Made by a program: the position numbers and the translations under genes. A stretch of 64,000 bases of DNA. Origin: Candidatus Woesearchaeota archaeon. Its GTDB lineage: Archaea; Nanobdellota; Nanobdellia; Pacearchaeales; GW2011-AR1. The stretch spans positions 31,348-95,347 of the forward strand of contig CAZIFJ010000001.1 of the NCBI GenBank assembly GCA_964538235.1. The letters are read 5' to 3'. This document shows, in pieces, positions 13,947-60,817 of this stretch (position 1 is the first letter of the stretch; each line of letters starts with the position of its first letter). The notes beneath the pieces were generated by a model, which was not told where the DNA came from, did no database searches, and was given only the letters and a program-made list of their open reading frames with translations.

Positions 13947-14537
13947 TTATTTTTTATTAATAATCTCATCATAGCTTCTCAACCAATTTCCAAATAAAAA
14001 CTTTCTAATTATTTCTAAGAAATTTCCTCCATCGCTCTTTGGTCTTGAGATCCAATTATATAAAACCATTAAAAATAAAATTAAAGAAATAATGAATACA
14101 ACTGGAGCTAAAAATATAATCTGCTCTCCATATGTTTCAAGAGAGTTTCTGTCCAAAATAAACCAAAAAAGATAAACATACATTAAAAATATAAGTATCA
14201 AAATTATTTCTGCAAGCCATTCAGTTCTGAAAAAAGGCAATCTTCCTATTTCATTTTTTAAATCAGGCCCCTTTATTCCATTATCAAATATTTTATACAT
14301 TAAACTTTTTTTCTGTCCCAAAGATTCTATCATAAGAATACAATAGAATAAAACAAAAAGTCCCAAAATCGACATAATAAAATACATTGGTCCCAGATTG
14401 GATTTAGAAGGCCATACCTTAAATAAAATCCATAAAGAAAAAGCAACTCCTACTGAAAAAACTGTCCAAATAAGAAAGTTACAATTTTCTGCCGAATCTC
14501 TGATTTTTTCATATTTCAACATTATTTCTTTATTCAT
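13947..14537 (-). CDS. Four-TM membrane protein, translationally coupled downstream of the RM gene
   Basis: Its start overlaps the RM stop by 4 bp. There are multiple hydrophobic helices. Confidence 0.5.
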   Translation of the reverse strand: MNKEIMLKYEKIRDSAENCNFLIWTVFSVGVAFSLWILFKVWPSKSNLGPMYFIMSILGLFVLFYCILMIESLGQKKSLMYKIFDNGIKGPDLKNEIGRLPFFRTEWLAEIILILIFLMYVYLFWFILDRNSLETYGEQIIFLAPVVFIISLILFLMVLYNWISRPKSDGGNFLEIIRKFLFGNWLRSYDEIINKK

Positions 14538-17503
14538 TTCAAACTCTCCTCAACAATTTTAATCTCTTCATCATTTAACCCATATAACTTATACACTTCT
14601 TCATCAATTTCATAATCAATATTTTTTATCTGTTGCTCTAATCTTTCTTTTTCGTTCCCAGTTGGATTTGTTTCGTGAAGTTGTTTTTGAAGCGAGAGCA
14701 TTTTATCAACTAAAGAAACTATTTTTTGTTCTTGTGATTTTTTCGGGAGACAGATTGGAAATTTCTCAATGAATCTTTTTGCATAAGAATAGTATCCTCC
14801 CCTAAATCTCGTGCTAATGTTTTTTAAATAAAATTCTAAAGTTTTGGAATTAAGTAATCCAAGAAGCAGTTTATATTTTTCTTTAAATTCTTCTTTCAAA
14901 ATTATTCCATAACCTCCAGCATTTCCACCCCCGACAAAATAATATTCTCCATTTTCATCCAACACAAATTTGTTTGAATTAGAAAGAACTTGCGTCATAA
15001 TCTTTTTCTTCTTAAATTTATCAATGTTTTGCGTTCTACCAAACTTATACCAATTTTTATCTTCGTTAAATCTGTTTTCTTCTCTCGATTTAAGTTCTTT
15101 CTCATAATCTTTCAAGTAATGATAAAAATTTGGATATTTTGATTTTATAATATCTAATTGAATTAAACTGGCTTTATCTTGGGATAGATCATAAGGATAA
15201 AGAACAGAATATCCTTCCCAATTTACAGACCATTTTCTTATTTCTTTTCCCTTAAGTAACTTTTTAATAATGCTTTTTTCAATTTTATATTCTTTATCCT
15301 TCAGATTATTTTTTACAATAAAATTATCTCTTTCTTCTTTAATTATTTTAACAAAATAATATCTATCTGCTCCAGTAATCATTCCCTGAAAAATTGCTTC
15401 AGCGATATTATTTAATCTCAAATCTATTTTGTCAAATTTTTGAAATATTTGAGAGCTATTTCCATCTGAAAAACTCCAAGTTAAATCTGAAACAGGTATT
15501 TTCTGCTCAAAACAAATTAAATTATCTTTGTTTAAAATTCCTTTATTTAACTTCATTAAATTTTTAGGAGTACAATAAAAAAATCGTGTATTATCTTCTT
15601 TATCCAAGAACAACAAGCAAGTATATGTTGTTGCATTTTCAAAAATTTGGTAATCTTTAAAATCTACTATTTCTTTAATTGCCTTATTTTTAGATATATA
15701 ATTTCTTAGATTTTTTCCATAATCTGCACTAAAGAATTTATTAGGCAATATATAACCCAATCTCCCATTTTCTTTCAATATTTTGTGACCCCTTTCTACA
15801 AATAAAATATAAATGTCATAATTCTTTTCTGGAGACTCATACATTTTATTAAAATAATCAACATCTTTTTTATTTAATGTTTGTATTCTAACATAAGGAG
15901 GATTCCCAATCACAACATCAAAACCTCCATTTCTAAAAACATCTGGAAATTGTGCGTGCCAATTAAACGCTTTGTCGCCTGCGATTTTGCTGTCGTCAAT
16001 TAAAGAATTTCCATTTTTTATATTATCTCGTAAGTTAGGTAGAAGGCGTTTATGAGTGTCTGGTGTTTCTTCTTCTAATATTTTCAATAATAAATTAAGC
16101 TGTGCTAACTCAACAGCTTTCTCATCTAAATCAACTCCATAAATACAATTTGACATAATAGATGCTTTTTGCCCCAAAGTAAGTCTATCTTTATAGAATT
16201 GGAATTGCGTGCTTTTTGCTTTCTCACCGCTTTTCAATTTTTGCTCAATTGTATTGCATAATTCTTGAAAAGCGCTCATAAGAAAACTCCCGCTTCCGCA
16301 AGCAGGGTCAACAATATTTACTTCTAAAATTTCATCAATTGTTTTATTTTTAATATATTCTCCTACTGTGTTCTTAACAATATAATCTACAATATAAGAA
16401 GGAGTATAATAAATTCCCATCTTTTTTCTCTTCCCAGTTTCAGATTCTAATTTAACTCTTTTCTCAGTGCTCTGAAGAATTGTTCCAAGATATTGTTCAT
16501 AGATGGTGCCCAATAAATCGCCAGGAATTTCATCAAACATATATCTTTCTTGAAAATCTTTTTTTCCAAAATACAAAATTCTAATAACTTCTTGAAGAGT
16601 ATTATCGTCAAAAAAGATATTTTTCTCATCTTCTAAAATACTTTTAGCGAATAATTTTGAATTATATTGTTTGTCAAAAATCAAAAATTGCTCTTCTAAA
16701 ATATCCCATATTCTCTTATGGATTCTCCCTTCTCTAAAATCTTTTACAATGCCTAAAAGAAAGTTTTTGTTTTCTAAACCTCTATCTTCAACAGAACGCA
16801 TAAAAATTAATCTATCTATTAAAATTTGAACAGCTTCGTCTATTTGTTCCTGCGATAAATATGCTCTTAATTTTTTTATGTCCTTTGAAAGCAATTCTCT
16901 AATATATAATAAATCTTCTAAAATACTTTCATCAATCGGCTTTGAAGCTTTCTCGTCTTTTTTAGAAAGTAATTCATAAATTTTTCCGTTTTCAAAACTT
17001 TCTTTTGATAACAACCAAAGCTTATCAAAATTATCTAAAAATTGCTCAAAAACCAATCTAAAATAACTTTCTCCAAGTTTTAATAAATTTTTGTCTATAT
17101 TTTTAATGTTAGTTAATGCATGGTATACTCTAATTTCTTTAAAATTAATTAAAACTGCAAATTTAATTTTTCTGTGATAAGCATAAGAAACCGCTTGTCT
17201 TCCTTCATCTTCGCTTAAACGAACAGAGGTTTTCTTAGCTTCAATAACTAATACTTCTTCGTTTCCAATTTTTAAAATATAATCTGCTCTTCCTTTCAAA
17301 ATACGAGTTTCTTTTTCAATGTCTTGCCTTTCCCACCCTAAAAGTTCAAACAATGGCTCAACATAATTCCACTTTACCCACTCTTCATTTTGGCTGTCAA
17401 TATAATCTTTATTTTTACTAGCTTGAGAAAACTGCTCAATTAATTCCTTCAACTTCTTCCTTGCTTGTTCTTTTGTCACCATATATTTCATAAAATAATT
17501 CAT
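14534..17503 (-). CDS. Type IIG restriction-modification enzyme (N-terminal PD-(D/E)xK nuclease, gamma-class N6-adenine MTase, C-terminal TRD)
   Basis: 989 aa. It has GRADYIL...VIEAKK (nuclease), VDPACGSGSFL (SAM motif I) and VIGNPPY (motif IV). Confidence 0.85.
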   Translation of the reverse strand: MNYFMKYMVTKEQARKKLKELIEQFSQASKNKDYIDSQNEEWVKWNYVEPLFELLGWERQDIEKETRILKGRADYILKIGNEEVLVIEAKKTSVRLSEDEGRQAVSYAYHRKIKFAVLINFKEIRVYHALTNIKNIDKNLLKLGESYFRLVFEQFLDNFDKLWLLSKESFENGKIYELLSKKDEKASKPIDESILEDLLYIRELLSKDIKKLRAYLSQEQIDEAVQILIDRLIFMRSVEDRGLENKNFLLGIVKDFREGRIHKRIWDILEEQFLIFDKQYNSKLFAKSILEDEKNIFFDDNTLQEVIRILYFGKKDFQERYMFDEIPGDLLGTIYEQYLGTILQSTEKRVKLESETGKRKKMGIYYTPSYIVDYIVKNTVGEYIKNKTIDEILEVNIVDPACGSGSFLMSAFQELCNTIEQKLKSGEKAKSTQFQFYKDRLTLGQKASIMSNCIYGVDLDEKAVELAQLNLLLKILEEETPDTHKRLLPNLRDNIKNGNSLIDDSKIAGDKAFNWHAQFPDVFRNGGFDVVIGNPPYVRIQTLNKKDVDYFNKMYESPEKNYDIYILFVERGHKILKENGRLGYILPNKFFSADYGKNLRNYISKNKAIKEIVDFKDYQIFENATTYTCLLFLDKEDNTRFFYCTPKNLMKLNKGILNKDNLICFEQKIPVSDLTWSFSDGNSSQIFQKFDKIDLRLNNIAEAIFQGMITGADRYYFVKIIKEERDNFIVKNNLKDKEYKIEKSIIKKLLKGKEIRKWSVNWEGYSVLYPYDLSQDKASLIQLDIIKSKYPNFYHYLKDYEKELKSREENRFNEDKNWYKFGRTQNIDKFKKKKIMTQVLSNSNKFVLDENGEYYFVGGGNAGGYGIILKEEFKEKYKLLLGLLNSKTLEFYLKNISTRFRGGYYSYAKRFIEKFPICLPKKSQEQKIVSLVDKMLSLQKQLHETNPTGNEKERLEQQIKNIDYEIDEEVYKLYGLNDEEIKIVEESLK

Positions 17504-42185: not shown

Positions 42186-42280
42186 AAAATTTGAATTATA
42201 GCCACTTATTTATAGATTATTATAGAGCAGTTTGAATATAGTAACCCAACTTGGTCTTTCAGTTTTTTCTGTTGGTTTAC

Positions 42281-42390
42281 TACTTCAAAAACCTTCTCGT
42301 CGTAGGTTTTTGAGGCACTCAAAAATCTCTGATTTTTGATGTTAGCGGAGCAACTAAAAGCCACAGAAAAATATAGTTGGTCTGCTATAA
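42281..42390 (+). ncRNA. Structured RNA candidate, family 2 copy 1 (three consecutive hairpins)
   Basis: Hairpin 1 is CTTCAAAAACC/GGTTTTTGAGG, with a G·U that is valid only on the + strand. Hairpin 2 is TCAAAAATC/GATTTTTGA. Hairpin 3 is CAACTA/TAGTTG. The paralogue at 55221 has compensatory changes in hairpins 2 and 3. Confidence 0.55.
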
Positions 42391-46508: not shown

Positions 46509-46663
46509 AGCCTCTAAGGGGATTTGAACCCCCGACCCCGAGTTTTTTTGTCTGACAAAACCAAGGTTTTGTCAACGCCCGTAGAACTTCTTTCCACGGC
46601 GGCTTCAATTCTGAAGAAATTGAAGCTTACGAAACTCGTACTCTACCGCTGAGCTATAGAGGC
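46509..46663 (-). tRNA. tRNA-Thr (anticodon CGU) with a ~84-nt intron in the anticodon loop
   Basis: Reverse-complemented the sequence is GCCUCUA-UA-GCUC-AGCGGUA-GAGU-A-CGAGU-UUCGUA, then the intron, then A-ACUCG-GGGUC-GGGGG-UUCAAAU-CCCCU-UAGAGGC-U. The intron contains two hairpins. Confidence 0.75.
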
Positions 46664-54651: not shown

Positions 54652-55197
54652 ATGAAAAAACTTATGTCTCAGGAAGAAATTGAAAAAAAACAAAAACGTT
54701 TGACTTCAATATCAAGTATAGTTTTACTTTTAATTTTAGTTATTAGCACAATAGGTTTTGCATTCATTTCAAATCCATTTATATCTAATGAAAAAGAAAT
54801 TCCAGAAAAAAAAGTTTATGAAAACAATGGCTTTTGGTCTTTCAAATTCGGAAATCAAGAAATTTCTTTAATCTCTTCTCCAGAATCACTTTCAGATATT
54901 CAATTAAATTTTTCCTTAACTTTAAATGATTATTACAATCAGCCATTATACATTGATTCGTCAGACGAATTAATAACAAGAGAAATTGGTTCATCTTTAG
55001 GTTTATACACAACAAGAGCTCAAGAAGCCTGTTTTGGAGAATGTGAAAGAAACCTCCCAGAAAAAAATTGCTCATCTAATTTAATCATCTTCAAAGATAA
55101 AAATCAAAGTTTAGTTTATCAACAAGATAAATGTATTTTTATTGAAGGAGACATAAAATCCACTGACGCATTTTTATACAGATTATTTGGAATATAG
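54652..55197 (+). CDS. Hypothetical membrane-anchored secreted protein
   Basis: 181 aa with an N-terminal TM segment. Confidence 0.45.
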   Translation: MKKLMSQEEIEKKQKRLTSISSIVLLLILVISTIGFAFISNPFISNEKEIPEKKVYENNGFWSFKFGNQEISLISSPESLSDIQLNFSLTLNDYYNQPLYIDSSDELITREIGSSLGLYTTRAQEACFGECERNLPEKNCSSNLIIFKDKNQSLVYQQDKCIFIEGDIKSTDAFLYRLFGI

Positions 55198-55220
55198 TCA
55201 ACCAATTAAATTCTTTGGCT

Positions 55221-55332
55221 AGTTGACTACTTCAAAAACCTTCTCGTAGTAGGTTTTTGAGGCTCTCAAGAACCGTGGTTCTTGACGTTAGCGGACCAAA
55301 AACAGCTGAAAGATTTATTTGGTCTGCTATAC
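55221..55332 (+). ncRNA. Structured RNA candidate, family 2 copy 2
   Basis: The 5' 45 nt and GTTAGCGGA...GGTCTGCTATA are conserved with copy 1. Hairpin 2 is TCAAGAACC/GGTTCTTGA and hairpin 3 is ACCAAA/TTTGGT, both compensatory versus copy 1. Confidence 0.55.
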
Positions 55333-56795: not shown

Positions 56796-56884
56796 GTCAA
56801 GGAACTTGACTCCTTGAGCATCCAAAAAACAAGCGCCGAACAAACCACGGCTTTTAAGCCGTGGTGGTGCATTGTTTTTTTGAT
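56796..56884 (+). repeat. GC-rich composite hairpin element, copy 3 (short A-variant hairpin + B + T7)
   Basis: GTCAAGGAACTTGACTCCTTGAGCA is an A-variant with the same GTCA..TGAGCA flanks. The B hairpin then has GCGCC/GGTGC, the G·U intermediate. It is in the same orientation as copies 1 and 2. Confidence 0.75.
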
Positions 56885-60575: not shown

Positions 60576-60655
60576 AGCTTTTTTTATAACATTTACTATA
60601 TAAATATTGCTGTGTTTTAAATATTATTTTAAATTAAGATAATTCAAATAGAAAA

Positions 60656-60793
60656 TTAAATTGCTTTTACTTTTACTATCGCTGCTCTCGGTTTAAAAAA
60701 AATTTTTGAGCCGCAATGTGGGCAGACAAATCTTTTTTCAAGAATTTTATTGCTTATTGTTTTTCCACAACTAAAACATTTATATTGAGCCAT
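60656..60793 (-). CDS. rpoP: DNA-directed RNA polymerase subunit P (RpoP/Rpb12-like Zn-ribbon)
   Basis: MAQYKCFSCGKTISNKILEKRFVCPHCGSKIFFKPRAAIVKVKAI, 45 aa, with CxxC...CxxC. It is below the ORF-track threshold. Confidence 0.7.
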   Translation of the reverse strand: MAQYKCFSCGKTISNKILEKRFVCPHCGSKIFFKPRAAIVKVKAI

Positions 60794-60817
60794 ATTTGTT
60801 TGTATTTTTTGGGTTTT

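Follow-up and report, generated by a model that had tools for sequence, protein, structure and literature searches.

Two copies of a short palindromic element, here called A and B, lie ~13 kb apart in the 64,000-nt stretch of contig CAZIFJ010000001.1 that was analysed (the window), and we suggest that they are probably copies of a non-autonomous mobile DNA element of the MITE/REPIN type (MITE, miniature inverted-repeat transposable element), bounded by terminal inverted repeats (TIRs) and flanked by TA. Taken more broadly, so that a variant moved by an HUH-type enzyme is included, we hold it very likely that A and B represent a mobile palindromic element. They do not look like a conserved, orthologous RNA gene. 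An earlier note, made from the sequence alone, had interpreted the two copies as a structured RNA under structural selection; what stands of that proposal is that the hairpins have been kept by compensated changes, whereas the TIRs, the TA flanks, the insertion sites and the precedent of the REPINs speak for mobile DNA.

Both loci can be compared with those of relatives. Around A, the gene order ArgRS/small genes/Mre11/Rad50/proteasome subunit/aCPSF1-like nuclease is kept in relatives L009, L011 and L013, and the spacer before mre11 measures 273 nt here compared to 55-80 nt in these relatives. All three also have the AATCTATAAATAA promoter box ~25-30 nt upstream of the mre11 ATG. Similarly, the order S-layer protein/182-183-aa gene/219-225-aa gene/VTT-domain gene is kept in relatives L021 and L022, in which the spacer that holds B here (242 nt) has 37-39 nt. 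At the syntenic loci of these five relatives no trace of the element was found by nhmmer, by a covariance model (CM) with filters on or off, or with the TIR pattern. On this comparison, A and B were apparently inserted into spacers which in five relatives are short and empty.

The junctions of B indicate the direction of the change. The first three bases of B, TAG, are the current stop codon of a 181-aa open reading frame (ORF). Deletion of B together with one TA gives TTT GGA ATA CAA TAA and a 182-aa ORF ending LFGIQ*, and the relatives of this ORF have 182 and 183 aa, one of them ending FGIN*; deletion of B with both TAs or with neither results in read-throughs of 193 and 209 aa. Because this junction restores the expected ORF end, it argues for insertion here rather than loss in the relatives, and the insertion of B appears to be precise to the base. 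The earlier description of both copies as intergenic fits A, which lies in the spacer before mre11 and is the copy correctly placed upstream of mre11-rad50, and fits B only loosely given that its first bases form a stop codon. The block upstream of the element that A and B have in common was considered as a promoter and dropped because in B it is coding sequence, namely the conserved coding 3' end (...DAFLYRLFGI*); in A it is partly the mre11 TATA box.

The ends of the copies are inverted repeats of each other. The pattern TATAGYMRMCCAA has exactly four matches in the 64 kb, which are both ends of A and B pointing inwards (chance expectation 0.9; four matches reached in 1 of 100 shuffles). Over ~45 nt the four termini can be aligned with a mean column identity of 74%, and since this alignment includes the loop sequences the ends are true inverted repeats and not just look-alike hairpins. 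Compared to its own reverse complement, the element scores 72 (A) and 56 (B) with -3 +/- 13 for shuffles (z ~4-6), and the reverse strand of B obtains 37 bits with a CM built on the forward strand. The imperfect TIRs begin TAG(Y)... and finish ...CTA, and homology halts at the same bases at both ends of A and B, i.e. TA/TAG...CTA/TA. Outside these boundaries both left flanks read TTTG(G)AATA and the right flanks are unlike each other; TTGRAA(T)-TA is present in three of the four half-sites.

The extent of the element differs from the ~110-nt unit with three hairpins described previously: the unit has 149 nt in A and 135 nt in B and includes a fourth hairpin, HP0, upstream of the other three (HP1-HP3; Table 1). 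The TTGG(T)CT-like sequence reported to precede each copy is present and resembles the 3' end as stated, but it is part of HP0 and lies inside the element. The hairpin linkers have 0-3 nt, and the four hairpins span each unit from the first base to the last. The conserved 5' block shared by the copies was correctly recognized, and this 36-nt block, TACTTCAAAAACCTTCTCGTMGTAGGTTTTTGAGGC, has exactly two occurrences in the window, at 42281 and 55228 (both + strand), with matches in 0 of 100 shuffles; the start of copy B is accordingly corrected from 55221 to 55228. GTTAGCGGA and GGTCTGCTATA are confined to A and B. The only ORF in the element begins with ATG at 42339 in A; the corresponding codon is ACG in B and the frame differs, so that no ORF is conserved. 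A is antisense to both neighbouring genes and B is sense to both, which makes the placement of the element independent of gene orientation, and both copies are on the same strand whatever the orientation of their neighbours.

Table 1. Coordinates of the two element copies, their hairpins and their flanks in the window.
Feature	Position	Strand	Description
Element A	42239..42387	+	149 nt, HP0-HP1-HP2-HP3, TAG to CTA; segmentation checked on sequence
HP0 of A	42239..42282	+	UAGUAACCCAAC / GUUGGUUUACUA, 20-nt loop; inside left TIR; aligns with the three other termini
HP1 of A	42283..42315	+	CUUCAAAAACCU / AGGUUUUUGAGG, loop UCUCGUCGU; one loop base differs from B
HP2 of A	42319..42339	+	UCAAAAAUC / GAUUUUUGA; core as HP1 (UCAARAAYC/GRUUYUUGA)
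HP3 of A	42343..42387	+	UAGCGGAGCAACUA / UAGUUGGUCUGCUA, 17-nt loop; inside right TIR; G.U pair and G.G mismatch
Element B	55195..55329	+	135 nt, four-hairpin plan as in A
HP0 of B	55195..55229	+	UAGUCAA-CCAA / UUGG-(CUAG)-UUGACUA
HP1 of B	55230..55262	+	Fold, shared 36-nt block
HP2 of B	55266..55285	+	UCAAGAAC / GUUCUUGA; two compensated pair changes relative to A
HP3 of B	55289..55329	+	UAGCGGACCAAA / UUUGGUCUGCUA
TA left of A	42237..42238	.	Putative target-site duplication; TATAGYMRMCCAA at 42237-42249 (+); empty site TTTGAA-TA-ATTCAA
TA right of A	42388..42389	.	TATAGYMRMCCAA at 42377-42389 (-)
TA left of B	55193..55194	.	Part of ATA (Ile) codon of the 181-aa ORF
TA right of B	55330..55331	.	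Next bases CAA TAA, inferred to be the final codon and stop of the ancestral ORF
Ancestral mre11 promoter	42206..42220	-	ATAATCTATAAATAA; outside the element, which lies 17 nt beyond

The three hairpins per copy that were predicted previously are well supported, with fold energies of -37.0 (A) and -39.8 kcal/mol (B) compared to shuffle means of -18.8 and -23.1 kcal/mol (z = -5.9 and -4.7). For the full element, the four-hairpin fold reaches -46.4 (A) and -46.7 kcal/mol (B), and a single long hairpin from end to end -43.1 and -42.6 kcal/mol. In the RNA and the DNA minimum-energy folds the first base of the element pairs with position 44 and the four hairpins fill the unit, such that the element boundaries are the feet of HP0 and HP3. 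The element being palindromic, either strand folds into four hairpins; the + strand folds 3-7 kcal/mol better than the - strand, and the strand-specific G.U reported before is indeed seen, in that two G.U pairs in all, in HP1 and HP3, form on the + strand only. HP1 and HP2 are variants of one hairpin (UCAARAAYC/GRUUYUUGA); two pairs distinguish HP2 from HP1, and two also differ in HP2 between A and B. Likewise, HP0 is a variant of HP3 (UAGUAACCCAAC...GUUGGUUUACUA versus UAGCGGAGCAAC...GUUGGUCUGCUA), from which it differs at positions 4-6 in both arms; in HP0 of A, 11 of the 12 positions in the pair table are paired and position 7 is a C.U mismatch.

As proposed in the earlier note, HP2 covaries between A and B: two of its pairs differ with full compensation, A-U to G-C and U-A to C-G. 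At position 5 of HP0, an A-U pair in A (A-T as DNA) is a C-G pair in B, and this compensated change is confined to HP0. The covariation claimed for HP3 is reduced to a single compensated pair (C-G versus A-U): when aligned by structure, the stem UAGCGGA-x-CAA/UUG-x-UCUGCUA is common to A and B, and the more extensive change reported before was an overstatement resulting from misalignment of this shared stem. Moreover, it does not hold that every substitution is compensated, as a G.G mismatch in HP3 of A is a C-G pair in B. Because the compensated changes are local while the loops have diverged by ~50%, the constraint is on the individual local hairpins and not on the left-right pairing of the ends. 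On our analysis, such changes would not discriminate between constraint at the level of RNA and at the level of DNA, since REPINs, which are mobile DNA, commonly show compensated changes in their hairpins (PMC3116915).

The Mre11 protein encoded in the window has hundreds of homologues with 60-66% identity, and those that are named are from a Pacearchaeota or Nanoarchaeota archaeon; the host of the elements is thus predicted to be a Pacearchaeota-like DPANN archaeon. MITEs are present at high density in some DPANN genomes (PMC11602168), and the criteria for MITEs have been described together with the TA-flanked ERIC-type elements (PMC3184786). A and B have the corresponding features, including a length of 149/135 nt, the lack of a conserved ORF, TIRs, filled versus empty sites in comparison to the five distant relatives, a stable fold and TA flanks.

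Combining these data, we suggest that the element was brought into a TA by a transposase provided in trans and that, subsequently, the loops diverged freely while the four local hairpins were kept by paired changes. A 2-bp TA duplication is a signature of IS630/Tc1-mariner-type enzymes and also of the ERIC, Correia and RUP miniature elements, which are TA-flanked palindromes similar in size to A and B; the putative duplication flanking A and B would thus point to an IS630/Tc1-mariner-type transposase acting in trans. Evidence for such a TA-duplicating DDE enzyme comes from the TIRs including their loops, from the third half-site to the right of A and from the hairpins that abut the element boundary. 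The hairpins may be constrained as single-stranded DNA during mobilisation or, about equally likely, as RNA once transcribed. In the latter case, B would be transcribed sense with its operon and A antisense, and owing to the palindrome both transcripts could form the four hairpins. A role at the RNA level is therefore possible, e.g. as a transcript-end or processing structure similar to the Correia RNase III substrate.

Several observations weigh against this reading. Neither a transposase gene nor a longer element with matching ends was found in the window, and only two full copies are seen in ~80 kb. In a genome with 72% A+T (the G+C content of the window is ~28%) TA flanks are weak evidence, and they cannot be separated from a TIR that itself begins with TA or from an element to which one TA belongs and which makes no duplication. 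DDE transposases do not need local hairpins inside their TIRs. The divergence between A and B is very uneven, with 35 of 36 positions identical in HP1 and 8 of 17 in the loop of HP3, and this points to selection on HP1 or gene conversion and not to the neutral decay of a dead transposon; near-identity to this degree in HP1 needs sequence-specific selection or gene conversion. Finally, the relatives with empty sites are five distant Pacearchaeota-like genomes (~50-66% amino-acid identity) and not conspecific.

Three other explanations were considered. Compensated pairs in HP0, HP2 and HP3 in combination with loops that diverge and stems that do not would also fit a family of small RNA genes, i.e. 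a trans-acting structured RNA of ~110-150 nt with its own promoter that was duplicated in this lineage and the stems of which are under RNA selection. The near-identity of HP1 amid heavy divergence elsewhere, the AATATAG that both copies have ~25 nt upstream of a plausible start together with the T-runs after them, and the position of the copies on the same strand regardless of neighbours are consistent with this idea, as are the G.U pairs and better folds of the + strand, although this strand call depends on just two G.U pairs. What looks like a promoter in B consists mostly of the ancestral Phe-Gly-Ile codons, and that of A adjoins the mre11 TATA box. Furthermore, no Rfam family is matched at E <= 10, no orthologue is present at the syntenic sites of the five relatives or in ~200 kb of related DNA, and the genome, metagenome and viral collections contain no true match. 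Given that an RNA gene leaves the TIRs, the TA flanks and the base-precise insertion unexplained, we consider it unlikely. Duplication of a hairpin cassette in a single event of illegitimate or microhomology recombination is far less plausible still. No more than two full copies are seen, both left flanks have TTTG(G)AATA as well as a stretch like TTTATA(C)AGATTAT as possible microhomology, and the stem pairs could then stem from template switching instead of selection, as template switching in palindromes can create complementary double changes in one step. But homology ends at the same bases on both sides of A and B, the ends are mutual inverted repeats, the junction of B is precise and restores the reading frame, and because both loci are filled relative to the relatives at least one independent insertion would still be required.

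The remaining explanation concerns the enzyme and not the mobility of the element. In an element similar to IS200/IS605-PATE or REP/REPIN, a tyrosine HUH transposase would read HP0/HP3 in single-stranded DNA, and insertion would be 3' of ..GAATA without target duplication, the right-hand TA being owned by the element. In archaea, no IS family is more widespread than IS200/IS605 (PMC13343696), and the reconstruction of the empty sites is equally compatible with this mechanism. It would account for local hairpins that covary independently of any left-right pairing (position 5 of HP0; positions 4-6 of HP0/HP3), for the subterminal imperfect hairpins with a conserved mismatch at both ends, for TTTG(G)AATA in front of both insertions with right flanks that are unlike, and for the location of both copies on one strand; REPINs, moreover, can adopt the same pair of alternative folds and often carry compensated changes. 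On the other hand, the ends of A and B are true inverted repeats including the loops whereas those of IS200/IS605 are asymmetric, and their hairpins abut the element boundary whereas in IS608 they are 10-20 nt inside it. No Y1 transposase, RAYT or TnpB was seen among the window proteins scanned, and to our knowledge RAYT/REP systems have been described in bacteria only. On the other strand, the right flank of A reads TTGAAT-TA, which fits a symmetric TA target. We therefore regard an HUH-type enzyme as no more probable than the RNA gene and favor an element with TIRs that inserts into TA.

Among known systems, ERIC/IRU of enterobacteria resembles A and B as an imperfect palindrome of ~127 bp that is intergenic, transcribed and non-coding and has TIRs, 5'-TA-3' at both termini and a stable fold (PMC3184786). 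ERIC is listed as MITEEc1 under IS630 in ISfinder and has been named MITEEc1_IS630 (PMC11602168). It is bacterial and has no sequence similarity to the element described here, each half of which contains two local hairpins that covary separately. Correia elements (CREE/nemis) of Neisseria have 104-157 bp, inverted-repeat ends beginning TATAG[CT] and a target duplication; they insert beside genes, can create promoters, and RNase III binds or cuts the hairpin of their transcript (PMC2649163). The termini of A and B (42237-42249 and the B equivalents) also read TATAG[CT]. In addition, the HP3 arm TAGCGGAGCAAC (42343-42354 and its equivalent in B) matches Correia TAGCGGATTAAC, from the repeat TATAG[CT]GGATTAAC (PMC2649163), at 10 of 12 positions; both resemblances were noted post hoc and may reflect chance. 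CREE are bacterial, present in >100 copies and built from a 26-bp TIR and a core with an IHF site, without internal twin hairpins.

REPIN/BIME elements consist of inverted palindromic units that fold either as a single long hairpin or as a "clover" of local ones and are extragenic (PMC3116915). A and B similarly contain two inverted palindromic units that form a hairpin and carry compensated changes, whereas REPINs are bacterial, number in the tens to hundreds and go together with a REP-flanked RAYT gene; the window has no RAYT. Archaeal PATEs of the IS200/IS605 type share with A and B the small size, the lack of coding capacity and the hairpins at both ends; PATEs insert 3' of a short motif without target duplication. 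However, the ends of PATEs are asymmetric, those of A and B are mutual inverted repeats, and neither TnpA nor TnpB is encoded nearby. Archaeal small RNAs (C/D box, H/ACA, tRNA, 5S, SRP, RNase P) are alike in size range, stable stems and a G+C content above that of the surrounding DNA. They differ in that no CM matches A or B and that HP3 has no pseudouridylation pocket or K-turn; as for the C/D box motifs (RUGAUGA, and CUGA near the ends), UGAUG and CUGA are found in A only, and B has UGACG and no matching CUGA.

These data call for caution in annotation: clean covariation between two copies in a metagenome-assembled genome can stem from a palindromic mobile element, and covariation alone should not be taken as an RNA gene. 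They also document what appears to be base-precise insertion of a miniature element in very short spacers of a reduced DPANN genome, where B now provides the stop codon of a conserved gene and A lies 17 nt from the mre11-rad50 promoter. More speculatively, and on balance doubtfully, A and B might represent the first described member of an archaeal (DPANN) family of hairpin-constrained mobile repeats, or a miniature transposon that was recruited as an RNA or transcript-end module. In the REPIN-like version, the hairpins UAG...CUA and UCAARAAYC/GRUUYUUGA would be read as single strands by a mobilising or host protein; if the local hairpins are indeed read in this way, REPIN-like biology would extend to archaea and the element would provide a handle on a mobilising enzyme in Pacearchaeota. 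In the recruited version, a streamlined genome would use the element as a small structured RNA or as a module at transcript ends, and the near-invariance of HP1 would mark a protein-binding site.

The earlier note could not assign a family and regarded the copies as unlike tRNA, 5S or C/D RNA, in agreement with Rfam and ARAGORN, neither of which gives a match on A or B. With Rfam at E <= 10, the best scores for A and B are 13-20 bits (E 0.4-10) against thresholds of 47-167 bits, and no family matches. At the gathering threshold only an unrelated tRNA passes in the whole window. This match (50.5 bits, 46509-46663, - strand) spans 155 nt, which indicates a long intron in an archaeal tRNA; no tRNA in the window is reported by ARAGORN. 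C/D box, H/ACA, split or permuted tRNA, 5S and RNase P were dropped as candidates since the motifs are not conserved between A and B. A TnpB/IscB guide RNA or IS110 bridge RNA was dropped as there is no such gene nearby and the ends are symmetric, a small ORF or type I toxin for lack of a conserved frame, replication-origin ORB boxes or a double-stranded operator because loop lengths of 3-13 nt are incompatible with them, and a riboswitch or leader because A faces away from any gene. A CRISPR-like array was not found in the window.

No further full copy was detected in the window by nhmmer, motif searches or the CM built from A and B. Exact-pattern scans covered 185,579 species-representative genomes, JGI metagenome contigs and IMG/VR and used patterns for HP1 (viral and metagenome collections), HP3 (viral and genome collections), the HP1/HP2 junction and the twin hairpin (viral contigs). 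They yielded no homologue; every match was inspected, and all were chance matches, mostly inside coding sequence. BLAST against plasmids and phages gave nothing, and no orthologue of the element was found in ~200 kb of related DNA including the five syntenic loci. Additional homologues that preserve the three helices, the lack of which the earlier note had named as counting against its own proposal, were thus found neither by the CM nor by nhmmer nor by exact-pattern scans. Two chance matches to the HP1 pattern, L016 200-330 and L020 2870-3000, are within a different nested palindrome, ..AATCACAYTCCGTGTGAT..hairpin..ATCACACGGAGTGTGA.., on two unrelated metagenome contigs of one sample.

Two weak candidates are possible relatives of the element at most. 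One, L021 18701-18774 (23.4 bits, E = 0.013 in 203 kb), has the twin hairpins without HP3, reads CTTGGCTA..UCAAGAAC GAUA GUUCUUGA..UCAAGGAUU GAA AAUCCUUGA and is located at a contig end in a related genome that derives from the same sample. Directly 3' of these twin hairpins is a long hairpin rich in G+C, GCGUAAUUGCUG...GGGGGACGGCGCACGC (L021 18640-18700, - strand), which is without Rfam match. The other candidate, "copy C", also has twin hairpins only and is on the same contig as A and B at ~68.8 kb, ~13.6 kb downstream of B (L033 625-690; 15.5 bits, E = 0.05). Its local alignment to B scores above 1000 of 1000 shuffles, which is not significant given the search space, and its HP1-like loop has UCGNNGUA in common with A and B. 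The positions 42281, 55228 and ~68.8 kb are on the same strand with spacings of 12.9 and 13.6 kb; with three points this may be coincidence.

Copy C and a split phosphoesterase ORF overlap at the 3' end of the latter. Located ~5 kb past the window's right end, this Metallophos_2 gene is broken into two ORFs of 85 aa each (L033 33-290 and 472-729) that cover profile positions 1-44 and 106-150 and adjoin a tRNA-Pro (29-102); the twin hairpins of copy C, which include a perfect 14-bp palindrome, code for its 27-residue 3' extension.

Two other matches to the CM were rejected. That in L022 is an unrelated hairpin pair inside genes, and that at 60632-60745 in the window is a small zinc-ribbon ORF. 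The latter encodes ~47 aa (60690-60795, - strand; MAQYKCFSCGK...CPHCGSK..., RpoP-like) in a seemingly empty spacer of 242 nt that separates sepF from the next gene. Breaks of Logan contigs near hairpins were considered as a signal of copy number and rejected, as palindromes in the assembly graph are their probable cause. Two hairpins follow the 182-aa gene at 56797-56865 (- strand): CCACGGCTTAAAAGCCGTGG across its stop codon and UCAAGGAGU-CAA-GUUCCUUGA followed by a T-run, the second with a UCAAGGA..UCCUUGA core as in one hairpin of L021. Two Logan contigs also end there. Elsewhere in the window, 14534-17503 (- strand) encodes a 989-aa Eco57I/MmeI-like fused restriction-modification enzyme with the domains HSDR_N, N6_Mtase, Eco57I and TaqI_C.

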